From positions 914 through 64,913 of IMG/VR virus record IMGVR_UViG_3300042691_035162: a stretch of DNA of 64,000 nt; one strand, 5' to 3'. Below the pieces are notes generated by a model, which worked only from the letters and a program-made list of their open reading frames with translations, was not told the origin of the DNA and made no database searches. The position numbers and the translations under genes were made by a program. Shown here piece after piece: positions 22,896-60,439 of this stretch (its first letter is position 1; each line of letters opens with the position of its first letter). The stretch is from a virus (Duplodnaviria; Caudoviricetes).

Positions 22896-23183
22896 TCATC
22901 TATCTTGTCCAGCATATTCATCAGCAGACCCATAAACACCATCACTTTCTCCTTTATCAAAATGCTTGGGGCATAGCATCCATGTAGGGATGCCAGTTTT
23001 TTTACTTAAATCCTCGATGTACATACGGGGTATGGACCCCCGGCTTTTCCAGTTCCAAACGGCCTGAGGGGTAACCGAGCAAAAGGTAGCTATGTCGTCC
23101 TGCGAGCCAAAGGAAATCAGCAGCATTTCTACTGGGTTGTCTGGCAGTTGGTCGTATAGCTCTGGGATGACTCGCATAATCAT
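22896..23183 (-). CDS. Cro/YdaS-like HTH regulator
   Basis: FGSQDDIATFCSVTPQAVWNWKSRGSIP. Confidence 0.75.
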   Translation of the reverse strand: MIMRVIPELYDQLPDNPVEMLLISFGSQDDIATFCSVTPQAVWNWKSRGSIPRMYIEDLSKKTGIPTWMLCPKHFDKGESDGVYGSADEYAGQDR

Positions 23184-23539: not shown

Positions 23540-23615
23540 CCTGACCAAATCAGTCAAGTATCAATTAAGCACCCTAGCCTGACCAAATCAGTCAAGTATC
23601 AATTAAGTACCCTAG
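23540..23615. repeat. Tandem 38-bp direct repeat (2 copies, 1 mismatch)
   Basis: CCTGACCAAATCAGTCAAGTATCAATTAAG(C/T)ACCCTAG at 23540-23577 and 23578-23615. Confidence 0.9.
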
Positions 23616-23781
23616 TCAGATAACTAGTCAGGCGACTAGTTACCTCTCATACGTATCTGGAGTAACCTATCAATTGCCCAGCGGTAACAACAGAATTCCG
23701 TGCAACGTGGGGTTCGGTTGTTGTACACAGCCGCTGGGCACGTTACACTTTGTTTATTCCGTTTCCAAAGGTTTTACGGCC

Positions 23782-24585
23782 ATGGCACTCGATTACCACG
23801 CAATTCTCATGAATTTGCAGGGCACTCAAGCCCCCAACTCCTTCACTGATGCACAGGTCGTCGATTACCTGACCAATGTCATCCCTGGTGCCTCCGATCG
23901 AGATATCGCTGCGCACATGACCCGGCTAAACGTTGGCGTGGACCAAGTAGCCCGGGCGACAAAGTTACCTGTGGCAGATGTTCAAAAAAGGTTTGTCGCA
24001 GCTACTGCTCCCCTGCCTACGGAAAAGTTCAAAGACACTGACATCACGCAATACATTAAAGATCGCGGAGGCTCACTTACTGAGCCACAGCTAATGGCAG
24101 AGATGATCAGCACGGGTGTTTCCCCCGAGCAATACGCACGGGCAACCAACACCCCCTTGGCCCAAGTTCAAACGCGCTATGGGGCCGTAGTAAATCCCCT
24201 GATGTCCTCCCTTCCCATCCCTGGTGGGGCGAGCACTCCTGCTACCACCCCAACCACAACACCGGGAACCACCACAACCCCAACGCGCACCGCCACGGCA
24301 CCGATCCCACCGGGGCTCACCCCCGGCAACGTGGACACGACGACAATCGTCGCTACCCCGCCGATCACCACAGGGGTTGTGCCGCAGATGCCTACACAGT
24401 ACATCACCCCGACTGGGGCGCTGGGCAATGCCCCCGCAGGCGTGTCGCAGCTTGCCGTGCCGATGTTAAACATGCGCAACGTCATCAACCAGGACGTGGT
24501 GCCCAACATCGTAGCGGCGCCAAAAACCACCCCGCAACTGAGCTACACCCCCATCACACAACTGGGCGTACCGCGAATCTTCTGA
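23782..24585 (+). CDS. Hypothetical protein with two ~50-aa helical repeats and a P/T-rich tail
   Basis: Likely start MALDYHAIL; repeats FTDAQV...VQKRF and FKDTDI...VQTRY. Confidence 0.65.
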   Translation: MALDYHAILMNLQGTQAPNSFTDAQVVDYLTNVIPGASDRDIAAHMTRLNVGVDQVARATKLPVADVQKRFVAATAPLPTEKFKDTDITQYIKDRGGSLTEPQLMAEMISTGVSPEQYARATNTPLAQVQTRYGAVVNPLMSSLPIPGGASTPATTPTTTPGTTTTPTRTATAPIPPGLTPGNVDTTTIVATPPITTGVVPQMPTQYITPTGALGNAPAGVSQLAVPMLNMRNVINQDVVPNIVAAPKTTPQLSYTPITQLGVPRIF

Positions 24586-24715
24586 TTTGCCCAATTTGCC
24601 CAAAATTTGGGCAAGCATGCTCGTAAACCCCTAGCGGTTCGAGTCCCGATTATTCTGGACTCTTAACATTTGGACGGCACAATGATCCCTGGTTCGAGTC
24701 CCGGGGAGGGGAGAA

Positions 24716-25141
24716 GTGCCATTCAAAGACCCAGAACAAAAGCGGGCGTATGAACGCGTCTACCGCAAGACGCACTATGAGAAGAACAAGGCGTCCGTAC
24801 AGGCCCGCGTGGCCCGTAATAAAAAGCTTGCCCGCGAGAAGTGGGTGGAGTTCAAAGCCAGCCAGGTTTGCCACAATTGTGGTATGACCCACCCGGCCAT
24901 CATAGACTTCCACCACGTCGTGCGGGACGGGACACAGCAGTCCGTTAACCGCATGGCGGCGGATAATCGCTGGAAGGCCATCTACGAGGAGGTCAAAAAG
25001 TGCATCCCCCTGTGCTCCAACTGCCATCGGATACTACACTGGGACGAGAGCCGCAAAAAGATGATCACCAAGGACATGACCAACCGTACGATGAACCGCA
25101 CTAAGGAGAGTACGAATGACGACGATAGCGGCCCGATTTAG
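24716..25141 (+). CDS. HNH endonuclease
   Basis: CHNCG...DFHH...KCIPLCSNCHRILH. Confidence 0.85.
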   Translation: MPFKDPEQKRAYERVYRKTHYEKNKASVQARVARNKKLAREKWVEFKASQVCHNCGMTHPAIIDFHHVVRDGTQQSVNRMAADNRWKAIYEEVKKCIPLCSNCHRILHWDESRKKMITKDMTNRTMNRTKESTNDDDSGPI

Positions 25142-25577
25142 CACCCTGGAGATAGCGGCAGATAGCCAGGTCTCGGGCGACGACGTGAAGTACTACATCG
25201 AGAAGCTGCGTCGGGGCAAGGACTGCATCTTCGGTGGGGCCGGGGACCTTGATAAGTTGCTCAAGTTCTATGACTCAGTAGAAAAGAACGGGGACTTTGA
25301 TGACCCCATCGAGGTGGACGTGCTCGAGCTTCGGGCTGACGGGATCTACGTCTACGAATCCACCATCCACCCGGTCAAGGTCCGGGGAGACTTCTTCTCG
25401 ATAGGCACTGGCTCAGCCTATGCGCTAGCTGCGATGTACCTGGGGAAAAGCCCCAAGGAGGCCATCGAAATAGCCTCCCTGTTCGATCCGGTGACCGGCG
25501 GGCCTATTGACGTGCTAAAGCTTGAACCGGGGTCCGTGGTGCGTAAGAAACGCACCACGAAGAAAGCTGCTACTTAA
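25116..25577 (+). CDS. Ntn-hydrolase (HslV/proteasome beta-like) peptidase
   Basis: N-terminal MTTIAA nucleophile Thr, AADSQ, IGTGSAYALAAM...AIEIA..FD..TGG. Confidence 0.8.
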   Translation: MTTIAARFSTLEIAADSQVSGDDVKYYIEKLRRGKDCIFGGAGDLDKLLKFYDSVEKNGDFDDPIEVDVLELRADGIYVYESTIHPVKVRGDFFSIGTGSAYALAAMYLGKSPKEAIEIASLFDPVTGGPIDVLKLEPGSVVRKKRTTKKAAT

Positions 25578-25962
25578 GGAAATGCATCCGGTGGATCTTG
25601 TACAACTCTAAGCTTAGATCACTGGACTTCTCGTAGGCTTCTTTCACAAACCGCTCTGCGATACAGATTAAAGCCGAAGCACGATTTGAATTTAAATCCT
25701 CCAGGTCATACATCGCGGAATCCATAAGCTGAACAACCTCGTGCAGCTTATCGCAGACTTTGTCGTGATCCTCGAGGATGGCAAAAAACTCCCGAGGAGG
25801 GTCTTTCTTATCCTCCGCCGCGATTTGGTTTCGAATAGTAGCGGCCCTATCCACCAGCCAGGTATCAAGCTTTTTGGCAATAGCATTAGAGCCTTTTTTG
25901 GAGCCTTTTTTAGAGCTTTTTACGGAGCCTTTTTTGGCTCCTTTTACGGGTTTTTTAGTCAT
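25570..25962 (-). CDS. Hypothetical protein with Lys-rich KKGS N-terminus and helical C-terminus
   Basis: ATGA overlap with the stop of the RAMP-like gene. Confidence 0.6.
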   Translation of the reverse strand: MTKKPVKGAKKGSVKSSKKGSKKGSNAIAKKLDTWLVDRAATIRNQIAAEDKKDPPREFFAILEDHDKVCDKLHEVVQLMDSAMYDLEDLNSNRASALICIAERFVKEAYEKSSDLSLELYKIHRMHFLK

Positions 25963-26573
25963 GACAATACCTCAAAGTTAGTGATGTTGTACCGCCCGTA
26001 CGTTGGCCTAAAGTCCCCGGTGCCAACCAGCCGGCCTGCCATGTTGACTACCTCCTGAAATAGAATCGGATTGATGTATTCCGGGGTGAGAATCTGGAAT
26101 ACAACATTCGCCTTCCATCCAGCATACATAGCGGGCCGCGTACGATTGACTCCGTTTCTCTGGACCATAACGCGACGGGTATCGAGATAGTCCCAGTCTT
26201 TCACGCCAAGAGATGCAAGCGGCGTGAGGGAAACAACACCAGCTTTAAACAGATCCATTGCAGATTTGCGCGTGGACCGTGGGTCTTGCTTAAATTTTGC
26301 TGCCTGAATAATCGACTGCCGCAGGTACTCCCCGGGTAGGCACAGGAACCCTTTCTTGTCGCGCCAGACGTACGATTCAACGTCATCGGTTTTCTTCACG
26401 GCAGAGTTCTTTGCCGCGTTCGTCTTGGCCTCCACAGATTCGCAATTCCACTTGTGAAAGAGCAAATCTGCTGCCCCGGAAACGGTCACAGAAACCGTGT
26501 ACGGAAAGCTATGTTCAATGGCTGTTTTACCGCCATTGCTGGGTTCACTAACTACTTTTAAATTCGACTTCAT
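25959..26573 (-). CDS. Stand-alone RAMP/Cas7-like RNA-binding protein (204 aa)
   Basis: True start MKSNLKV at 26573 after AAGGAGAAGGTA. Beta-strand YTVSVTVSG-AADLLFH; LCLPGEYLRQSI matches the RAMP IPGSSLKG.IR motif; RTRPA; C-terminal G-rich loop AGRLVGTGDFRPTYGRY. Confidence 0.75.
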   Translation of the reverse strand: MKSNLKVVSEPSNGGKTAIEHSFPYTVSVTVSGAADLLFHKWNCESVEAKTNAAKNSAVKKTDDVESYVWRDKKGFLCLPGEYLRQSIIQAAKFKQDPRSTRKSAMDLFKAGVVSLTPLASLGVKDWDYLDTRRVMVQRNGVNRTRPAMYAGWKANVVFQILTPEYINPILFQEVVNMAGRLVGTGDFRPTYGRYNITNFEVLS

Positions 26574-26594
26574 TACCTTCTCCTTTATGAAAAA

Positions 26595-26730
26595 ACCATG
26601 CCATGTCTTGCCTAGCCATACCAACCCTCGCCATACCCTACCGCACCAAACCTGTACTTGCCTGGCCTCACCTCGCCATGCCATACCTCGCCTCGCCATG
26701 CCTGGCCTCGCCAAGCCACCCCATACCGCG
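26595..26730 (-). ncRNA. Pentameric GGY-NN repeat array (27 units), putative guide-RNA locus of the adjacent RAMP protein
   Basis: Exact 5-nt register over 135 nt; 23 of 27 triplets are GGY, 2 GGG, 1 GTA, 1 GAC; lies between the stop at 26736 and the RBS at about 26580; followed by a T tract. The repeat is directly seen; RNA function is inferred. Confidence 0.75.
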
Positions 26731-26735
26731 TTAAA

Positions 26736-26894
26736 TCATTTATGTCCCAGGGCAATCATCGTCAACCCGATATTGCCAACGAGGTAACCAAAATACGTGA
26801 CCGCCATCCACGGCTGGTCGTGTCTAAAAAACAATACCGCAATTGCCGCGTATTGCACGGCGATGAAAGCTATCAACCAGGCGGGAAGAGTCAT
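26736..26894 (-). CDS. Small two-TM membrane protein (52 aa)
   Basis: Manual translation MTLPAWLIAFIAVQYAAIAVLFFRHDQPWMAVTYFGYLVGNIGLTMIALGHK; ATGA overlap with upstream gene. Confidence 0.6.
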   Translation of the reverse strand: MTLPAWLIAFIAVQYAAIAVLFFRHDQPWMAVTYFGYLVGNIGLTMIALGHK

Positions 26895-27121
26895 TGGGCC
26901 GTGGTCGATGAGCTAAGAATTTTGAGCAGATTCAAAGAACCTGTGGACATGCACTCACCAAAGGTGATGTCGTCCAAATGATCAAAGTCATCCTCCGACA
27001 AAGGAGAGCCAATAAATGCGATTGTCTTGCCATTTGTAAGACGCACGTAAAGCACCTGCACAGGCTCATCAGGATCGCGGTTAAGCAGATTGGAGATTGC
27101 CAGAGAATCGGCATAGCTCAT
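26891..27121 (-). CDS. Hypothetical protein
   Basis: 76 aa, ATGA-coupled on both sides. Confidence 0.55.
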   Translation of the reverse strand: MSYADSLAISNLLNRDPDEPVQVLYVRLTNGKTIAFIGSPLSEDDFDHLDDITFGECMSTGSLNLLKILSSSTTAQ

Positions 27122-27321
27122 TTTGCTCTGTCCTGCGTTTGCTTGATGATGTCCGCGATTGTCTTGAGCTGGGGCTGCGGGGGCAGTTTAAAGTCCGTGT
27201 GGCCTTCCATCTCATCAATATGATCGATTAAAAGTTTCATGGCGCAACGCCACCCATCCAATTGAACATCAATGCCGCTCGTCCATGACCGGGCTAAGTG
27301 CTTGGCTTCGTCTAAGTTCAT
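27118..27321 (-). CDS. Hypothetical protein
   Basis: 67 aa; AAGGAG upstream. Confidence 0.5.
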   Translation of the reverse strand: MNLDEAKHLARSWTSGIDVQLDGWRCAMKLLIDHIDEMEGHTDFKLPPQPQLKTIADIIKQTQDRAK

Positions 27322-27438
27322 CTTCCAGCTCCTTATTACGCCTAAAAAGCACTTGGCAGGCGTAGGTTAACTGCTGTATATCTTGCCTTTGTCGCTCGAT
27401 ATAAGCAAGTGCCCTGGGGAGGGTATCGATTTCGCTAG

Positions 27439-27687
27439 TCACGTGTTCTTCCCTTTCTGATGTATGTGTAACTCTTGAAGGTGATCAGAAACCTCCAGAC
27501 CAAGCTGTCCAAAGTTTGACGCCGTAAAAACGGCCTGTAGATCCTTGATTGCCTGGTTATAACAAAGGCGCCCATACTCAAGTGCCAGGCTTTCCGGCAT
27601 TTGGTACTTCGCTCCCGTTTGTTTTAGGCCCGAGGTCATCGCTGCCACTAGATACTCTGTTAGCATCCTCTCGTTGTTTGGGTTCAT
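27439..27687 (-). CDS. Hypothetical protein
   Basis: Start refined to MNPNNERM after GGAGAAGGA. Confidence 0.5.
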   Translation of the reverse strand: MNPNNERMLTEYLVAAMTSGLKQTGAKYQMPESLALEYGRLCYNQAIKDLQAVFTASNFGQLGLEVSDHLQELHIHQKGKNT

Positions 27688-27827
27688 TTTTTCCTTCTCC
27701 AAATATTCGATCAAAGTTGTCCCAAAACGTTTGGTCTGGGACATTCATGGGACGTCTAGTAGATCCTTTTCCGCTCATATCAGTAACCCCAAAATGATTC
27801 CGGCAATTAGTATCGGCCACATGTTCT

Positions 27828-28031
27828 TCATTCCTTCACCTGATAAAACCTTACAACACCAGTCTTATGCATATCAGCTAGCCCTTGAGTAACAAAGAAA
27901 TCAAGTGCTCGCCTGGCGTGGGTTTCGCTGATCAGCAGCGTCTTCATTGCCTGCTTAATAGTCACTGGTGTTTTGCGCTCTAAGAGGTAATGCCAAATCT
28001 TCTCGTCTTTAGGATCAATGCTTACGGCCAT
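27828..28031 (-). CDS. Small winged-helix DNA-binding protein
   Basis: KIWHYL...PVTIKQAMKTLLISETHARRALDFFVTQGLA. Confidence 0.6.
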   Translation of the reverse strand: MAVSIDPKDEKIWHYLLERKTPVTIKQAMKTLLISETHARRALDFFVTQGLADMHKTGVVRFYQVKE

Positions 28032-44195: not shown

Positions 44196-45332
44196 TCAAG
44201 GTCCAAATAGGCCAGCTTTTTGTGCCCCGGTAGCAGCAGACAGTGCGCCAATGCCTAAAGAAGCTGCCTGCAGCAATGGACTAGTGGTTGGCGCACTCTG
44301 CCCAGTAATTGCCATGGAACTAGATGGAGCGCCTTTGTAAATGTCCGACAAGAAACCTAGTTGCTGGTAGGGAGCCATTGTCCTTTGCAGTTGCGTAGCG
44401 CGTTGTGCTTCCAAACCTTGCTGGCTAATTTGACGTTGTTGTTCGCCAAGATTAAACAACATATTAACGTCTGACTGACCAGCACGTTGAGCACTTTCAC
44501 CCAAAGCGCCTTGTTGCACGCCAAGAGAACCTAGACCCTGGCCAAGAGAGCCATACAACTGTGCTCCAGTACCGAGGATATTTGCTTGTTGCGCTGCAAT
44601 TTGTGCTGGGAGAAGACCCATTTGAGCTTGTTGCGTGCCCATTTGGCCAAGAAGGCCGGCACCGCTAAGTTGACGTTGCTGCTGTGCTTCGAACCCGGCC
44701 ATCCCAGCTTGTTGTGCTTGAGCGTAGTTTGCAGCTAAGTCTTGTGCAATGCGCTGGCTCATGACATCTTGAAGGCCACGCTCAAACTCTGCACGCTGAA
44801 CACCTTCACGAGTGCCACCAAAAGCACCGGCTCTAACAGCCTGAGCAGCCTGACCTTGGCGAGCGATATCAGCTTGGCGACGCATCTCCGTTAATGCACG
44901 CTCAGTAACCTGTTGCTGATACGGATTCATAAACGCTTGGGCCATATTCGGGTTGTAGCCCATCGTGGCACCAGGCACATTTCCGGCAGCTTGACCAAGA
45001 GTTGTAATGCCCTGTTGCACAGACGGCATGCCTGTGCCTGCTGCTGTAGCAAACTGGGGAAGTTGAGCAGCCATCTGCGTGCCGTAACCCAGCGCTCCAA
45101 TACCTGCTTTGACAGCCTGCCCAGCTTGCGTCATAAACGGCGCGTATGCGCCAATGCCTTGTTTTGCCAGTTGAGCGGCTTCTACTTGCTCCGGTGCCAT
45201 ACCCGCCACTTGATAGGCGGGTAAATCCATGGGTCTCGCAATTTGCGCCTTTGCTGCTTCTAACAGGCCTAACTTATAGGCCTCAATCTGTGGCGCTTCG
45301 CGTACTATCTGTTCGGTAATTTCTGTAGCCAT
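44196..45332 (-). CDS. Internal virion / DNA pilot-type protein
   Basis: Q/A/G-rich, FMNPYQQQV, AGAFGGTR. Confidence 0.65.
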   Translation of the reverse strand: MATEITEQIVREAPQIEAYKLGLLEAAKAQIARPMDLPAYQVAGMAPEQVEAAQLAKQGIGAYAPFMTQAGQAVKAGIGALGYGTQMAAQLPQFATAAGTGMPSVQQGITTLGQAAGNVPGATMGYNPNMAQAFMNPYQQQVTERALTEMRRQADIARQGQAAQAVRAGAFGGTREGVQRAEFERGLQDVMSQRIAQDLAANYAQAQQAGMAGFEAQQQRQLSGAGLLGQMGTQQAQMGLLPAQIAAQQANILGTGAQLYGSLGQGLGSLGVQQGALGESAQRAGQSDVNMLFNLGEQQRQISQQGLEAQRATQLQRTMAPYQQLGFLSDIYKGAPSSSMAITGQSAPTTSPLLQAASLGIGALSAATGAQKAGLFGP

Positions 45333-47398
45333 TATGCTTTCCTTTCAAAGGCACGCATCATTTGGTACATGCGTTTTGCGCCTTCTCTGCGGGATCCACC
45401 GCCAGCACCACGAACAGCCCTAGCAGTCATAACAAATTCTCCATCCGACAACATTGCGGGAATTGAGTCTGAGGTTTCTGTACCTGGACCGGAGATCTGC
45501 CCGGTCCTGCGCGGGAAATGTCGTGGCTGACCACCATTAGCATATCCGCCTAAGTTGTATTTACGAGGCGCAACAGCAGCAATACCACCAGTAGCTGCGT
45601 ACATCATTCCAGGTCTAGTTGGGTACACCGTTTGGCCACCACCTACTGTAACGCCAAAAATGTCCGGGCGACTACGTAAAAGGTCATATCCCGTTTCTTT
45701 GGGAACTATGTTTGGCGGGGTAACTGGTTCTTGTTTAAATCCTCCGGTCAGGGCAAGTGCTCCAAGACCTGTTCCAACAACGCGGCTGGTAGTACCAAAC
45801 ATGGGTTCAGCAGCTTTTTGAATTGCAGCAAGTTGTTTAGCCGCTGCAGGAGTGTTTTTAGACGTCAAATCGGTGAAAGCTTCTTGGTAGTTTTTATATG
45901 CTCCCCCGGATAACTTTTGAGCAGCAGCATTTAAATCTTGGGGGGACGATTCTGGATTATAGAAATCCATGATCCCCTGGCCTACTTTTTTCGCCCCGGC
46001 AGCGGCTTGGTCAAATAAAGATTGTTCAGGAACGACAGTTGAGGAATCTATATAGTTATATGGGGGCTGTTGTGCTAACTGGGCGCCAGCAACATTAGTA
46101 GGTGCTCCTTGAACTAACGGGCCGCCAGACGGGTTGTACTGAAGACCGCGTTGCGCTAGTGCTCTATCCACGGCCTGGCCACTAGCAACATCAGGTGGCA
46201 TTGCTTCAATCAATGGGCCGCCAGACGGGTTGTACTGAAGACCGCGTTGCGCTAAAGCCTTATCAACAAACTCCCCCCTAGCAACATCCGATGGCATTAC
46301 ATTTGATGCCACAGTCTCCGTTGGGGTGGGGATAGCCGCTTGTGTGGGGGTGGCAGGAGGTGCTTGAACCTGAGAAACATTCCCACCAATTAAAGATTTA
46401 ATCCCGCCAGTAAACTTATCGGTTTGTTGCGAAAGAGCTTGGGAAAACGATGTCGGGGCATTTGCCGAAGCCGCAAACGCACCTGGCGTAGTCAATCCAG
46501 TTATTGCTCCTGCGGTAAGTGCGCCAAAGGCCCCAGTTCTTAGAGCATCTTTAACGCTTTGTCCTGCCAACATTGAGGAACCAAAGCCCCCCACAAAACC
46601 GCTCATTGCTGCAATACCAGCAGCGGAGGAGACTCCCATTGCGGCAGCGGCGGCAGGACCTAAGAAAAAGCCAAGAGCAACAGTGGTAACCATTCGGCCA
46701 ATGCTAGAGGAAGCAAACTTTTTGATGCCACGGCCGACATCTTTAAGTGCCTTACCTACGCCTTTGACTAGGTTTTTTGCGCCCTTGACGATCTTGTCAA
46801 TAAAAAATTCTGGGAGTCCTGTTTCAGGGTTGATGGTTCCAGACCCACCTCTGCGGCGCAACAAACGTGCTTCTCCGTGAGTAATGTGGGCCAAAAGTCT
46901 ATCCCCGTGCCGGCCTTTTCCAGCCAGGGCTGCAGCGATCGGATTGAGCTGCACAATCCCGCCTTTGGCAAAAGCCTGTGGTTCGGGGGCCATGGACCGG
47001 GCACTCATCTGGTCCAGAGCCATGTTTAGGGCAGCAAAATAATTTGGGTCAAATTCCGGGGGTAAGAGATCCTCGGGGATTCCCTCCGCCAGAAGGGACG
47101 CACGAATTTGAGGGTAATTCTGTGGATCAGCCAGGATTACATCCACAACCTGGCCTAGAAGGTCGATAACCTCCATGGGAAGATTAATGCTGTTTAGCAG
47201 TTGAACAAACTCGTCCACCGCCTCCGGATCGGCATTTTTTGCCTGTTCAAGCAGTGCATCCCCAAATTCCTTAGGGTTTACCTGCATCCGGGCCTGTTCA
47301 AAGGCTGCCTGCTCTGCCTCACCAACCTGTGCAACGGGTTGAGCCGTTGGTGCTTGCATGCCTGCCTGGGGCAAGGCCATGATTCCTTGGTCTTCCAT
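45332..47398 (-). CDS. Internal virion protein
   Basis: LAHIT..EA..L...GGSGTINPETGLPEF, hydrophobic G/A segment, GPGTETSDSIPAMLSDGEFVMTA; start refined to MEDQG. Confidence 0.65.
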   Translation of the reverse strand: MEDQGIMALPQAGMQAPTAQPVAQVGEAEQAAFEQARMQVNPKEFGDALLEQAKNADPEAVDEFVQLLNSINLPMEVIDLLGQVVDVILADPQNYPQIRASLLAEGIPEDLLPPEFDPNYFAALNMALDQMSARSMAPEPQAFAKGGIVQLNPIAAALAGKGRHGDRLLAHITHGEARLLRRRGGSGTINPETGLPEFFIDKIVKGAKNLVKGVGKALKDVGRGIKKFASSSIGRMVTTVALGFFLGPAAAAAMGVSSAAGIAAMSGFVGGFGSSMLAGQSVKDALRTGAFGALTAGAITGLTTPGAFAASANAPTSFSQALSQQTDKFTGGIKSLIGGNVSQVQAPPATPTQAAIPTPTETVASNVMPSDVARGEFVDKALAQRGLQYNPSGGPLIEAMPPDVASGQAVDRALAQRGLQYNPSGGPLVQGAPTNVAGAQLAQQPPYNYIDSSTVVPEQSLFDQAAAGAKKVGQGIMDFYNPESSPQDLNAAAQKLSGGAYKNYQEAFTDLTSKNTPAAAKQLAAIQKAAEPMFGTTSRVVGTGLGALALTGGFKQEPVTPPNIVPKETGYDLLRSRPDIFGVTVGGGQTVYPTRPGMMYAATGGIAAVAPRKYNLGGYANGGQPRHFPRRTGQISGPGTETSDSIPAMLSDGEFVMTARAVRGAGGGSRREGAKRMYQMMRAFERKA
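46119..46254. repeat. In-frame 96-nt-period duplication with an identical 40-nt core
   Basis: GGGCCGCCAGACGGGTTGTACTGAAGACCGCGTTGCGCTA at 46119 and 46215 (ALAQRGLQYNPSGGPL twice). Confidence 0.85.
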
Positions 47399-47486
47399 TT
47401 GCGTCCTTTCCATATGGGGCGATGGACCTACTTCGTCCGCGCGTCGGGAAAGGACGCGAATTTGGTCAATATTATGACGGATTTCA

Positions 47487-52505: not shown

Positions 52506-53096
52506 TCAGGCGAACTCTGTCCATCCGGTCAGGATGTACTTGACGCCAGATAACGGTGGGTTACCACGATGGGCCCACGGATAGTTTGAAGGAAATATTA
52601 CTAATCGACCCTTTTTAGGGGCGACGCGCATGGACTGGTACAAAAATTCTGTTTCCCCGCCTTCCTCAACATCGTTGAGATAGAGGATGTACACGCCAAT
52701 GCGAAACGCGTGAGACTTGGTTCCGTCTTCGGAATGCCAAACGTGGTATCCACCACTGGGCAAGGTCTTTTGGACCTTGTAAGTATAAATAGTATGCTTA
52801 TCGTAATCCAATAAGACACTGTAGTTTTCTAGATATTCTTTATAACATTGGGACCAAAACTTGTCATTAAAGTCGCATATAAAATTTTGTATATTCGGGT
52901 AAGAGAAATTTATTTCCGAATAGTCAGCGGGATTTAATATCGTAGAGTCATCTTTTTTAACACGTTCTTCTTCCGGGCGGGCGTACGTACGGTTGTTCTT
53001 TTGGCACCACTCAAAATATTCAATGAGTTGGTCGCACATCTGCTCCGAGATTGCGTTGTCGTATATGCCAACAAAATTTTGATACGTTGATTTCAT
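52506..53096 (-). CDS. 2OG-Fe(II) oxygenase (prolyl-hydroxylase-like)
   Basis: GGYHVWHSE, YILYLNDVEEGGETEF, PWAHRGNPP..G.KYILTGW. Confidence 0.88.
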   Translation of the reverse strand: MKSTYQNFVGIYDNAISEQMCDQLIEYFEWCQKNNRTYARPEEERVKKDDSTILNPADYSEINFSYPNIQNFICDFNDKFWSQCYKEYLENYSVLLDYDKHTIYTYKVQKTLPSGGYHVWHSEDGTKSHAFRIGVYILYLNDVEEGGETEFLYQSMRVAPKKGRLVIFPSNYPWAHRGNPPLSGVKYILTGWTEFA

Positions 53097-53701
53097 TTGA
53101 ATGCCGGCCCACAAACCCAGACAACGATGGTTCTACGAATTCCGCTAGTAACTGGGGTAACCCTATGCAACACATAGCTAGGAAACCCAACGACTAACCC
53201 CCTTTGCTTCAACACTTTTGTTGGTGTAGACATAGTATACAGTTCCAAGTCTCCACCTTCATACTCTTCTGGATCGCTTAATTGAAGCACCAGGGAAAAT
53301 TTTCTTGGCGGCGAAGATGTCCCACTTACACCGCTATCTGTATGCCAAGAATAGTGTCCGTTAGTAGAACTTTCGTAAACCGTGTATTGAAGATCCTCAC
53401 TAAACCCATATAGGTCAAACTTGTAAAACTGACCGTTCAGTTGCCTAGCAATGTATGCCAAGCGATCGTAAATCCATTGAGACTCAGAGTTCAAACCAAT
53501 CCAAGCCACCTTTGACTCTCGTATCTCAGAGATATCTTCTTTCGTATCTACAGAACCAATAGTTCCTTTATTTACTGGTAATGAATCGCAGTAAGCAACT
53601 AATTTTTCAAGTTCCTCCGAGCTAAACCCATTTTCCCAAGTAGTAAAAGGATGCTCTGAAACTCCAAATGTAGGGGCTGGGGCAAAAATGTAGTTGGCCA
53701 T
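53093..53701 (-). CDS. 2OG-Fe(II) oxygenase (prolyl-hydroxylase-like)
   Basis: HYSWHTD, RKFSLVLQLSDPEEYEGGDL, FPSYVLHRVTPVTSG.RR. Confidence 0.88.
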   Translation of the reverse strand: MANYIFAPAPTFGVSEHPFTTWENGFSSEELEKLVAYCDSLPVNKGTIGSVDTKEDISEIRESKVAWIGLNSESQWIYDRLAYIARQLNGQFYKFDLYGFSEDLQYTVYESSTNGHYSWHTDSGVSGTSSPPRKFSLVLQLSDPEEYEGGDLELYTMSTPTKVLKQRGLVVGFPSYVLHRVTPVTSGIRRTIVVWVCGPAFK

Positions 53702-57455: not shown

Positions 57456-58139
57456 TTAGCCAACATTGACAGGAGCAGTTCCACGTGAAACCTCTGGAAA
57501 AAGACAATCTTCGATAAACCGTTTGACCTCTGCCTCATCCAGACCAAGTGCCGACATCACCTTAGGCGTATGCGGGTTCTTTTTCTGGTTTTGGCAGTAC
57601 CAATCCTGGGCCTCGGTGAAATCCACCCCACACGAGACTTCCCCTACATTTTCCAAGTAATAGTCAAGGTTAGCAATCACTAACTGCAGTAATCTCGAAA
57701 GTTCCTCTTCATCGGAAATGTTGCCGGCAGCCACCATGGAATCGCTAAATATTGCTTTGGCCCAGTCCGGCAGTTGACGGACCTTGGACCACGAGTTTTT
57801 ACTGACACGGACCTTGAACCAATCCAGCATGGGGTGTGATTGAGCTACCGGGCTAAAGTCATGAAATGCCCCGGTCACCTTGTTTGGCCCGGCAATGATG
57901 TCAAACCCAAAGATAGGTGCCGGATCGTCGGTGTGGGGGAACACCGTTAGATGAAGCATGTACAACTTCTTGGTATCCCTGGCATCAACAATATCCAGGT
58001 GTGCGCGGCGGAAATTAAGTCCGGTGTAGACATAATTAGGCCAAGAAAACTGGTGACCTTCGTCTAACGGGGTAAATCTAGCTATACGAGCGTGGAGTTT
58101 TGTTTCTGCGGCTTCAAGTTGCTGGAATATCGTAGGCAT
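57456..58139 (-). CDS. pcyX: Ferredoxin-dependent bilin reductase (PcyX/PcyA-like)
   Basis: FRRAHLDIVDAR...HLTVFP...PIFGFDIIAG..KVTGAFHDFSP...LPDWAKAIFS...Q..YC.NQKKNPHT; adjacent to heme oxygenase. Confidence 0.85.
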   Translation of the reverse strand: MPTIFQQLEAAETKLHARIARFTPLDEGHQFSWPNYVYTGLNFRRAHLDIVDARDTKKLYMLHLTVFPHTDDPAPIFGFDIIAGPNKVTGAFHDFSPVAQSHPMLDWFKVRVSKNSWSKVRQLPDWAKAIFSDSMVAAGNISDEEELSRLLQLVIANLDYYLENVGEVSCGVDFTEAQDWYCQNQKKNPHTPKVMSALGLDEAEVKRFIEDCLFPEVSRGTAPVNVG

Positions 58140-58647
58140 TGGCTAACTCGTCAAAAAGTTCAAGAACAAAGTCAAACGCCTTATTTGCTTCATCCCCAAG
58201 GTCGTCGGAAAGTTTACTCCGAACTCTGTTGATAAGTTCTGCCCTATCCTTAAATTCGTACATTCTGCCTTGGCTTGGGACAACCTTCTTTAACATTTGA
58301 CCCCCATACATATCCCCAAAATGCCGGACGTAAATATGGGCCATTAGTTTTTCTGCTGGGACGTTATTTAAGTAAGAAACGTAATTAGAAGTAGCTTTTC
58401 TAAATCCGGGCTTCTCTCCAAGTTCTGTCAAGTCTTCCTGCATCAAATCAGCCCGTCGAATGTCTTCAATGCCAAACAACAAACCGTATCTTTGAGCCAA
58501 CGACTCTAGCCTAGAGTAGGCCACTAATTGGTTGAAAAGAAAATCCGCATAAATATTTTTGGGCATTTCCCCAGAGAACAAAAGCTTAACAAAGCGGTGG
58601 TTTTCCGCCTTGTCGTGCTTTTCTGCTATTTTGTCCCTAAGTGCCAT
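58114..58647 (-). CDS. hemO: Heme oxygenase
   Basis: Start MALRDKIAEKHDKAE (proximal His); LMAHIYVRHFGDMYGGQML. Confidence 0.9.
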   Translation of the reverse strand: MALRDKIAEKHDKAENHRFVKLLFSGEMPKNIYADFLFNQLVAYSRLESLAQRYGLLFGIEDIRRADLMQEDLTELGEKPGFRKATSNYVSYLNNVPAEKLMAHIYVRHFGDMYGGQMLKKVVPSQGRMYEFKDRAELINRVRSKLSDDLGDEANKAFDFVLELFDELANAYDIPAT

Positions 58648-60439
58648 TTCTAATAGACAAAAGTTTCGAGTACTCTGGGAGATAAAGATACTCAATATTT
58701 GACTGTTGCAATGTCCAAAGAGCGTCTTCAAGAGTTTCTACTAAGGGCTCGCCGCCTAAGTTAAAACTTGTGTTAAACACAATTGGTACCCCGGTCTTTT
58801 CCTTGAACTTGCTTATAAACCGATAGTACAACGGGTTTTCATTCTCTGTAACTGTCTGGATTCGGCATGACCCGTCTACGTGAATGATCGAAGGGATCTT
58901 TTCCTCCACGCCCGGGCGGCAGCTTACCGCGTACATCATGTGCGGACTTGCTTCCATGCCTTTTAGATCGAACCACTCGTGGACATCTTCCTTAAGAATA
59001 GAACCGGCAAACGGTCGGAAATACTCTCGGCGCTTTACCGTATTAACGTAGTCTTTCCCGTCCTTAAATCTTGGGTCAAATAAAATGGATCGGTTTCCAA
59101 GAGCCCTCGGTCCGTTCTCAGAACGTCCTTGAAACATCGCCACAATGTTTTTAGACGTCAGCATATCGACGATTTTTTCATCATTAGCATCTTCGACAGA
59201 CGCTCCGTACTTGTCACAAAGATCTAGTATTTGCTGTTCTGTGTACTCATACTTGGGACCAAGGTAGATACTACTAGGCGCTTTTTTAGTCGACCCGGTT
59301 AGGTTGTGGTAAAACCACAAAGCAGCTCCTATAGCTGTCCCGCCGTCGTTTGATATTGGCTCAACATATAGTTTTATACCTAGTTCATTTAACTTGTCTA
59401 AGTAAAAGTAGTTTGCTACACAGTTAAGGCCATACCCCCCAGCTAAAACTACGTTTTTCTTACCGGAAAGTTCAGATGCACGAATTATTAGTTTTAAAAC
59501 TTGCTCTTGGGTTTGAGTTTGCAGGGCATACGCTAAATCCCGCCTGTTTTGTAGTTGTGTTAAATCCTTAACGCTAACAGTAGGATCATCCTTAAGCTCT
59601 GCAATAAGGTTTCTATTTACAAAGGCAGACCCAGGATACGTTGGTATTACTAGGTTTCGATCAACTAAATCAAATGGGAAGACGTCAGACACAGTATTGA
59701 ATAACGGTGGGATAGCAGCATTTGGTTTTCCGTAAGGAAAAAGTCCCATTGTTTTACCGGCTTCAATACCCTGAAACCCACAGTACTCTGTTACTGCTTC
59801 GTATAGTTTTACAATGCCAGCCCTGTCCGTTATGTAGGCCTCTACGTCCTTTTCCTCTAGAAATGCATCCTTAGGAATAGTTACTTTATCGCAAGGAACT
59901 ATATCCCTACTTCCATAATGCTTATGGAGGGTGGAAAAATTATTTGGATAACTACAGTCATAAATTGTTTCGACCTCCCACAACATGGCAGGCATATTTC
60001 CAAAACTAACTTGTTTACAAGATCCTGCCCCGTCCACCACGACTGCCACAGCCTCATCAAAACCGCTTCTGTAAAACGCCATAGAGGCATGGATTTTGTG
60101 ATGATGTTCTGCTAAATCAACTACTTGCGGATGGTTAAAGATGTCAGTTTTTCTATTGATCAGCCCAAGCTTACGAGCAAGCCCAACATAAACATTGTCG
60201 CCCGTGTAATCCACGTTTTGAGAAACTGCTTGCATGGTTTGGGTATGAGAAACAACAACATAATCTACCTTATCCGTGTAGTCCAATACCTTCATCATTG
60301 CAGCATATGGGCCGCCATCATATTTGTGACGGCTAAGCCTTTCTTCCTCAACAGAGAAAACAATTTCTCCATCTTTTAACAAACATGCCGCTGCATTATG
60401 GCCTCGGCTAATTCCAAGTATGTATCCAGTATTTGTCAT
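58637..60439 (-). CDS. Carbamoyltransferase (NodU/CmcH family)
   Basis: GHNAAA..EEERLSRHK, HHKIHA, VVDGAG, GGYGLNCVAN, GPRALGNRSIL, KRREYFRPFA, NTSFNLGGEP. Confidence 0.92.
   Translation of the reverse strand: MTNTGYILGISRGHNAAACLLKDGEIVFSVEEERLSRHKYDGGPYAAMMKVLDYTDKVDYVVVSHTQTMQAVSQNVDYTGDNVYVGLARKLGLINRKTDIFNHPQVVDLAEHHHKIHASMAFYRSGFDEAVAVVVDGAGSCKQVSFGNMPAMLWEVETIYDCSYPNNFSTLHKHYGSRDIVPCDKVTIPKDAFLEEKDVEAYITDRAGIVKLYEAVTEYCGFQGIEAGKTMGLFPYGKPNAAIPPLFNTVSDVFPFDLVDRNLVIPTYPGSAFVNRNLIAELKDDPTVSVKDLTQLQNRRDLAYALQTQTQEQVLKLIIRASELSGKKNVVLAGGYGLNCVANYFYLDKLNELGIKLYVEPISNDGGTAIGAALWFYHNLTGSTKKAPSSIYLGPKYEYTEQQILDLCDKYGASVEDANDEKIVDMLTSKNIVAMFQGRSENGPRALGNRSILFDPRFKDGKDYVNTVKRREYFRPFAGSILKEDVHEWFDLKGMEASPHMMYAVSCRPGVEEKIPSIIHVDGSCRIQTVTENENPLYYRFISKFKEKTGVPIVFNTSFNLGGEPLVETLEDALWTLQQSNIEYLYLPEYSKLLSIRNGT

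Follow-up and report, generated by a model that had tools for sequence, protein, structure and literature searches.

The window analysed here, 64,000 nucleotides (nt) of the tailed-phage record IMGVR_UViG_3300042691_035162 (IMG/VR), very probably harbours a locus of the Viral Interference Programmable Repeat (VIPR) type. It comprises a gene for a Vipr-like protein of 204 amino acids (aa) and, directly upstream on the same strand, an array of 27 pentamers in which a GGY triplet (Y, pyrimidine) alternates with a variable dinucleotide (NN). The assignment is carried by homology and fold of the protein, its GGY-contact residues, the grammar and strand of the repeat, the synteny of the locus and the presence of arrays tracking that of the gene; every family-defining VIPR feature that can be examined here was found at the locus. 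With moderate confidence, the 27-unit array is proposed to be active as a guide in trans, directed at another mobile element.

VIPR systems are described in three bioRxiv preprints of 2026 (10.64898/2026.04.26.720920, 10.64898/2026.04.26.720927 and 10.64898/2026.10.15.759431). According to the first two, the RAMP protein Vipr assembles with guide RNAs (vrRNAs) of alternating GGY and NN into a right-handed filament with one Vipr protomer per repeat, which recognizes double-stranded DNA in a gapped manner, skipping every third base. Competing satellites, prophages and phages are reported to be silenced at the level of transcription, and the three preprints distinguish seven types differing in array architecture as well as six families of accessory (vap) genes; array architectures vary, some systems possessing only one vrRNA (10.64898/2026.04.26.720920). 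A preliminary description of the window, made from the DNA letters alone, had suggested such a match, and the GGY/NN guides, the stoichiometry and the gapped recognition given in the preprints bear it out. Since VIPR is thus already in print, the kind of system is known and the present locus is a new member of it.

Homology, fold and contact residues of the Vipr protein

By sequence homology, the 204-aa protein is a Vipr, i.e. a minimal Cas7-like RAMP related to the structurally solved Vipr of Escherichia phage SUSP1 (YP_009199429.1; PDB 36pp). A Pfam search with it yielded no family; among the PHROGs, it was assigned to phrog_4652 (function unknown; E 1.5e-11), to which SUSP1 Vipr also belongs (E 1.4e-96). 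A phmmer search against PDB sequences retrieved a single chain, 36pp_D ("SUSP1 Vipr protein"; E 0.0053), and a profile built from 67 diverse family members matched the same chain with E 4.6e-18 across residues 5–190 of 202, the next match having an E value of 0.23. Direct comparison by BLASTP with SUSP1 YP_009199429 (from NC_028808.2) gave 25 % identity over 169 aa (E 2e-7).

The AlphaFold2 model (pLDDT 93.2, pTM 0.84) displays the core strands of an RRM fold, a helical insertion (residues 44–68), a β-hairpin thumb (129–149) carrying R144, R146 and P147, and a G-rich loop (184–193). Top Foldseek matches of this model in the PDB were all Cas7-family RAMPs, led by type VII Cas7 (E 2.1e-7) and followed by Csm3, Cmr4 and Cas7-11. 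Together with the homology to the solved SUSP1 protein, this upholds the initial call of a RAMP/Cas7-like gene, and both hallmarks on which that call had been based, LPGEYLRQSI and the G-rich loop GRLVGTGDFRPTYGRY, are present in the open reading frame (ORF).

In SUSP1 Vipr, the first G of the triplet is reported to be contacted by H17 and D177, the second by R138 and W178, and the pyrimidine by E71, M72, R179, C173 and T175 (10.64898/2026.04.26.720927). Mapping by means of the phmmer and profile alignments with 36pp_D revealed identical residues at five of these positions (H17 to H40, E71 to E82, R138 to R146, D177 to D187 and R179 to R189). W178 is represented by F188, retaining the aromatic character, M72 by Y83 and C173 by V183, and T185 occupies the position of residue 175; the counterpart of K33 is ambiguous, as it falls into a lysine-rich stretch. 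Within the alignment of 67 sequences, arginine is found at position 146 in 66, P147 in 67, R189 in 65, D187 in 61 and H40 in 55. Homology and conserved contact residues together suggest that each Vipr subunit binds one GGY.

The family is large, with 6056 clusters (90 % identity) retrieved at E <= 1e-3 and 1024 representatives remaining at 50 % identity. Distant homologues were also encountered by tblastn in two cultured phages, Gordonia phage Trine (32282–32827; E 7e-4) and Pseudomonas phage Medea1 (8598–9149; E 9e-5), both with 23 % identity and annotated as hypothetical proteins.

The pentamer array and its counterparts in related loci

Read on the minus strand from 26727 to 26593, the array consists of 27 units in one unbroken 5-nt register, exactly as initially described. 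The triplet, then regarded as constant, is GGY in 23 of the 27 units and deviates in four: GGG in units 2 and 21, GTA in unit 15 and GAC in unit 25. The array lies far outside chance expectation. When the 64-kb window was simulated with a first-order Markov model (100 surrogates), the longest in-register GGY run did not exceed 5 (mean 3.75), compared to the 23 observed; shuffling the array's own 135 nt (5000 times) never placed more than 9 GGY in the most favourable phase. No second array with at least 4 GGY units occurs in the 64,913-bp genome, whichever strand is read; the present one was detected in part by Tandem Repeats Finder, with periods of 5, 15 and 20.

The first unit begins 8 nt past the stop codon of a 52-aa ORF (26736–26894, minus strand), and 19 nt separate the last unit from the start codon of vipr (ATG 26573). 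As this interval is filled by the T-run, the ribosome-binding site (RBS) and a spacer (Table 1), no space is left for a structured 3' tail. Predicted RNA folding of 26560–26740 was no better than that of shuffled sequences (z -1.69), and no terminator-like hairpin was found at the array end. An Rfam scan of 24500–28000 up to E 1 returned nothing at gathering score, its single row across the array being SOX2OT_exon3 (14 bits as compared to a gathering score of 70 bits; E 0.72).

Homologous loci were inspected for arrays of the same kind. Of the 47 loci, one is that of DSL-LC04 (the nearest named phage), seven were taken from IMG/VR and 39 originate from metagenomes. The metagenome loci include at least three whose contigs are also represented by IMG/VR loci, and several others are near-duplicates. 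Arrays were called when at least 5 GGY units were co-oriented with the gene and lay no farther from it than 700 nt on the upstream or 1200 nt on the downstream side. Such an array accompanies the homologue in 41 of the 47 loci, and in 27 of the 31 loci having at least 200 nt on both sides; opposite-strand arrays were found in three of the 47 and same-strand arrays elsewhere in one. Among the six array-less loci (L015–L017, L032, L039 and L047), L015–L017 possess little downstream sequence, and their relative L018 has arrays farther down. With duplicate loci removed, the information content of the NN amounts to 0.02 bits at position 4 and 0.00 bits at position 5 (1224 units, 99 arrays, 38 loci). 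The expected co-occurrence of gene and array, with conserved GGY and divergent NN, was thereby observed. Arrays of relatives reach up to 36 units and in some loci are located downstream of the gene. Of 20 loci with upstream arrays, 11 leave no more than 30 nt between array and start codon; other loci carry simple hairpins.

The origin of the 27-unit array can be traced by comparison with L002, a 91%-identical relative. Units 1–21 correspond to the 21-unit first array of L002 and units 22–27 to the final 6 units of its second array, and the 30 nt present between the two in L002, i.e. the 10-nt spacer AACATAACGC and 4 units, are absent from the window. Two arrays have thus been fused in register, and the window array is apparently a 21-unit guide to which the terminal 6 units of another have been joined. 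The NN of units 1–11, 13–16, 18–19 and 21 are identical in window and L002 despite an overall DNA identity of the locus of 75.6 %, which suggests selection on the guide. Three variants within the array (26706, 26720 and 26725), detected in contigs of four DNA runs, concern scaffold positions and equal the L002 states. Contigs of two metagenome runs, matching the upstream gene, diverge from the window at 26733 and enter a different GGYNN array.

Relative to DSL-LC04, vipr (25951–26597) aligns at 70 % and the upstream gene (26734–26897) at 81 %, whereas the intervening array is unalignable, the corresponding region of DSL-LC04 having a length of 290 nt. The DSL-LC04 locus (L001; 3640–3950, minus strand) contains three arrays of 20, 11 and 10 units, the middle one flanked by a 13-bp stem (TTCTTAGTGGGGC / GCCCCACTAAGAA) and the last one ending in a short hairpin and a T-run followed by the RBS. 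From these array ends, tails in this clade appear to be simple hairpins or absent.

Table 1 Features of the putative VIPR locus (window coordinates)
Feature	Position	Strand	Remarks
vrRNA-type array	26593..26727	-	27 GGYNN pentamers in a single register: 23 GGY, 2 GGG, GTA, GAC
NN of the array, 5' to 3'			AT GT TT GA CA AT GA GA AT AT GA GA CA AA CA TT GC AG AT GA TT AT TA AA AT AT TT
T-run, RBS (AAGGAG) and spacer	26574..26592	-	TTTTTT includes the TT of the last array unit
vipr gene (204-aa minimal RAMP)	25959..26573	-	Assigned by homology, PHROG, AlphaFold2 model and contact residues
Candidate accessory (vap-like) gene, 130 aa	25570..25962	-	Start overlaps the vipr stop (ATGA)

Proposed mechanism and alternative explanations

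By analogy with the work on SUSP1, the array would be transcribed on the minus strand and each pentamer be occupied by one Vipr protomer, the protomers building a helical filament in which the GGY bases would be sequestered and each NN displayed. The NN would then pair with double-stranded DNA matching NN-x-NN-x, i.e. with one base skipped per unit, and the resulting R-loop or triplex would keep the target from being transcribed. It is likely that the system serves to silence a competing mobile element within the host, be it a satellite, a prophage or a rival phage. Since the array is tail-less and ends 19 nt before the vipr start, its anatomy indicates that the guide is probably the leader of the vipr mRNA itself or a piece cut from it.

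Several observations weigh against this interpretation. The identity to SUSP1 Vipr is just 25 %, rendering the 1-nt skip rule an assumption for the window protein. Four of the 27 units deviate from GGY; GGY to AGY, GAY, GGA and AAY substitutions are among the constructs listed in a figure legend of 10.64898/2026.04.26.720920, and its text states that perturbed GGY motifs abolished silencing. The number of units exceeds the published 9–16 (10–12), and the structured 3' tail capping the characterized type II vrRNAs was not found, six T and the RBS following directly on the array. As the array resembles the product of a 30-nt deletion fusing two guides, part of it could be non-functional. No sigma-70-like promoter was detected in 25400–27400, and none of the runs listed with the phage sequence is on record as RNA. 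Furthermore, the GGY part of the repeat logo is circular: arrays were called by GGY content, and the information at positions 1–3 is partly a consequence thereof.

A natural target was likewise not found by exact-seed searches under the 1-nt-skip rule. Candidate targets were required to follow the pattern NN-x with at least 80 % of the NN matched, and large collections were searched with exact seeds alone. The phage's own genome contains no self-target, the best matches all remaining below 80 % of the NN (28/54 for the full guide; sub-guides reached 15/20 with 10 units, 18/24 with 12 and 19/28 with 14); a control with a 3-nt skip recovered the array itself (54/54). Absence of a self-target has also been published for other VIPR systems (10.64898/2026.04.26.720920). 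Exact matching of units 1–11 yielded none in viral contigs and two in genome contigs, one in a histidinol-dehydrogenase-like ORF (L166; read from the translation) and one in a metalloprotease-like ORF (L167). Both are attributed to chance, as extension reached just 30/42 and 25/42, respectively. Units 12–21 gave no exact match. The single match of units 17–26 (L168) is also regarded as a chance hit, with random flanks (7/32 for units 1–16) and the skipped base on codon position 1. Seeds of 8 units led no further: best extensions were 28/42 for units 4–11 (at 80 loci, out of at least 116 matches), 28/42 for units 13–20 (all 31 matches examined) and 29/42 for units 1–8 (79 matches scored from 80 loci, out of at least 104 matching stretches). 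In the reverse direction, 396 sub-guides of ten units each, derived from 55 arrays found in relatives, matched the window genome no better than unit-shuffled guides. The target search was shallow, being based on exact patterns, and says little either way.

The same observations enter into the best-surviving alternative, which is nevertheless considered improbable: a genuine Vipr whose array is a decaying or fused remnant without guiding function, or serves mainly as a cis-acting, Vipr-binding leader by which vipr translation is autoregulated. This is favoured by the loss of the 30 nt separating the L002 arrays (fusing 21 and 6 units), by the four non-GGY units, by the tail-less end 19 nt from the start codon and by the absence of a target in the exact-seed searches. 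It is opposed by a register that is intact across the fusion junction, and by dinucleotides that are the same in L002 at units 1–11, 13–16, 18–19 and 21 while the locus as a whole has diverged. Moreover, the near-identical phage sequence recurs in freshwater metagenome contigs from 12 studies, tail-less arrays abutting the RBS are common in the clade (11/20 loci, see above), and the missing target counts for little given the depth of the search.

Two further explanations are given practically no weight. Translation might begin within the array and so lengthen the 204-aa protein at its N-terminus, since the frame is open through it (251 aa from TTG 26714). A 5-nt period cannot, however, give rise to a conserved repeat at the peptide level, ATG 26573 is preceded at 6 nt by the strong RBS AAGGAG, and homologues start with MKSNLKVV- or MAKSNLKVV-type N-termini. 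In DSL-LC04, moreover, the frame is closed by a TAG located 15 nt ahead of the ATG, and the array region is unalignable and differs in length among relatives, arrays elsewhere being located downstream of the gene. The open frame is thus regarded as an accident, G-rich sequence being poor in stop codons.

Equally negligible is an orphan CRISPR Cas7 (type III- or VII-like) relying on crRNAs from host arrays, with the G-rich repeat as an unrelated regulatory or G-quadruplex element. The best fold matches among solved structures are indeed Cas7 and Csm3 subunits, but at the level of sequence the protein matches SUSP1 Vipr and no Cas7 model, and co-oriented pentamer arrays track the gene (41/47 loci). 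In agreement with the initial reading that neither a CRISPR array nor cas1, cas5, cas6 or cas8 is visible, no CRISPR-like array was detected in the window, and a PADLOC scan of 73 ORFs gave no match to cas1, cas5, cas6, cas7 or cas8. The cas-named matches that it did return were a weak Cas4-like one (phage exonuclease) and two to a "CAS-associated" 2OG model (E 4.5e-17 and 5.4e-15).

Genomic context and place among VIPR systems

Functionally characterized relatives belong to type II (SUSP1 and a P. fulva prophage), with which the window locus shares a homologous Vipr and the same GGY contacts. As in SUSP1, a co-oriented GGYNN array precedes vipr and a small gene follows directly downstream, and the system is phage-borne, without cas genes, CRISPR array or self-target. 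It differs from SUSP1 in the low identity of its Vipr (25 %) and in having a single array of 27 units, whereas SUSP1 possesses four vrRNAs of about 12 units each, one upstream of vipr and three downstream of vap1; no downstream arrays are present in the window. Each SUSP1 array ends in a pseudoknot tail of about 40–60 nt (GGTAGTAGCC...CTACC-type), while that of the window runs into six T and the RBS. It thereby departs from type II vrRNAs of the SUSP1/P. fulva clade in both their 9–16 repeats and their conserved structured 3' tail. Compared to the other types (I and III–VII; single-vrRNA, staggered or hammerhead-interspersed), the single long unbroken register could represent a staggered or a single-guide form. 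Unlike in hammerhead-interspersed arrays, no hammerhead was found at the window locus or at 18 related loci; in the Rfam scan of these 18 of the 47 loci only tRNA genes were matched, with no hammerhead or other ribozyme, and the window locus likewise lacks a ribozyme. Class 1 CRISPR-Cas RAMPs (Csm3 of type III-A, Cas7 of type VII and Cmr4) are more remote, with 6–15 % sequence identity, and come with a CRISPR array, Cas5/6/8/10/11 and adaptation genes, all of which the window lacks. The VIPR step as published for SUSP1 is 5 nt, with three bases sequestered and a gapped 2+1 code, as opposed to 6 nt with one flipped base in CRISPR RAMPs.

In the place of vap1 (phrog_5926), the window carries an unrelated lysine-rich gene of 130 aa. 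The preliminary description had considered vipr a solo gene, which does not strictly hold, as the 130-aa gene overlaps its stop codon in the manner of vap genes in published loci. The predicted protein consists of a disordered, lysine-rich N-terminus (residues 1–24) followed by three long helices (model pLDDT 75.9). It has no similarity to SUSP1 vap1, no Pfam family and no PHROG match, and its model found no Foldseek match at E <= 0.001. Homologues amount to 6 clusters, and a copy on the downstream side of vipr is confined to L002 (59 % identity) and DSL-LC04 (30 % identity), the closest relatives. Position and composition suggest that it may encode a lineage-specific accessory DNA-binding factor.

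Upstream of the array, the 52-aa ORF codes for a hydrophobic product that is 87–92 % identical in L002 and DSL-LC04, its conservation exceeding that of vipr. From the other side, genes for an HNH endonuclease (24716–25141, plus strand; phrog_3106) and an HslV-family peptidase-like protein (25116–25577, plus strand; phrog_1040, E 3.1e-29) converge on the VIPR operon; the same pair also borders the DSL-LC04 locus.

The source is a complete, uncultured freshwater tailed phage. The window spans bases 914–64913 of the 64,913-bp record, which has exact direct terminal repeats of 69 nt and a CheckV completeness of 100. The genome encodes small and large terminase subunits, portal, capsid-like and tail proteins, a family-A DNA polymerase (PolA), a primase, two helicases and an exonuclease; tRNA genes were not found in it. 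DSL-LC04 (OR003939.1) originates from lake water and is labelled no finer than "Gammaproteobacteria"; its Vipr homologue is annotated as "helix-turn-helix transcriptional regulator".

Some further features of the genome were recorded. The two ORFs matching the 2OG model are adjacent, of 202 aa each (52506–53114 and 53093–53701, both minus strand). Near them lie two genes on the minus strand (57456–58139 and 58637–60439), one carbamoyltransferase-like (phrog_1601, E 6.8e-165), the other matching a "ferredoxin oxidoreductase" PHROG, and these genes may form a block for nucleotide or DNA modification or auxiliary metabolism. A 38-nt direct repeat in two copies (23540–23615; 97 % identical) occupies the divergent intergenic region between a repressor-like gene (22896–23183, minus strand; phrog_35) and an ORF at 23674–24585 (plus strand), and may represent an operator or an origin. 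A 96-nt tandem repeat (46119–46298; 1.9 copies) lies within a 693-aa ORF (45332–47413, minus strand) with weak tape-measure matches.

VIPR, with its RNA-guided DNA binding, gapped code and proposed ancestry of CRISPR RAMPs, is a discovery only months old, and functional work to date concerns type II alone (coliphage SUSP1 and a Pseudomonas prophage). The same machinery is now found in an abundant uncultured freshwater phage, in a compact form that combines a single tail-less array with a different candidate accessory gene. A bolder generalization, of low probability, is that the large environmental Vipr clade uses a VIPR architecture without prior experimental characterization, with tail-less, very long leader arrays ending near the vipr start, which in the sub-lineage of the window phage are paired with the orphan lysine-rich three-helix accessory protein. 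By assembling on the leader of its own mRNA, Vipr would then load the guide and at the same time limit its own translation, and the number of units in a guide would depend on deletions or fusions that preserve the register, such as the 30-nt one of the window, and not on a unit delimited by a tail. The general picture of VIPR is unchanged by the locus, which is a new member with an uncharacterized architecture and not a new kind of system. As such, it offers a natural test case for the maximum length of vrRNA filaments, the dispensability of the 3' tail and the excision of guides from an mRNA leader.

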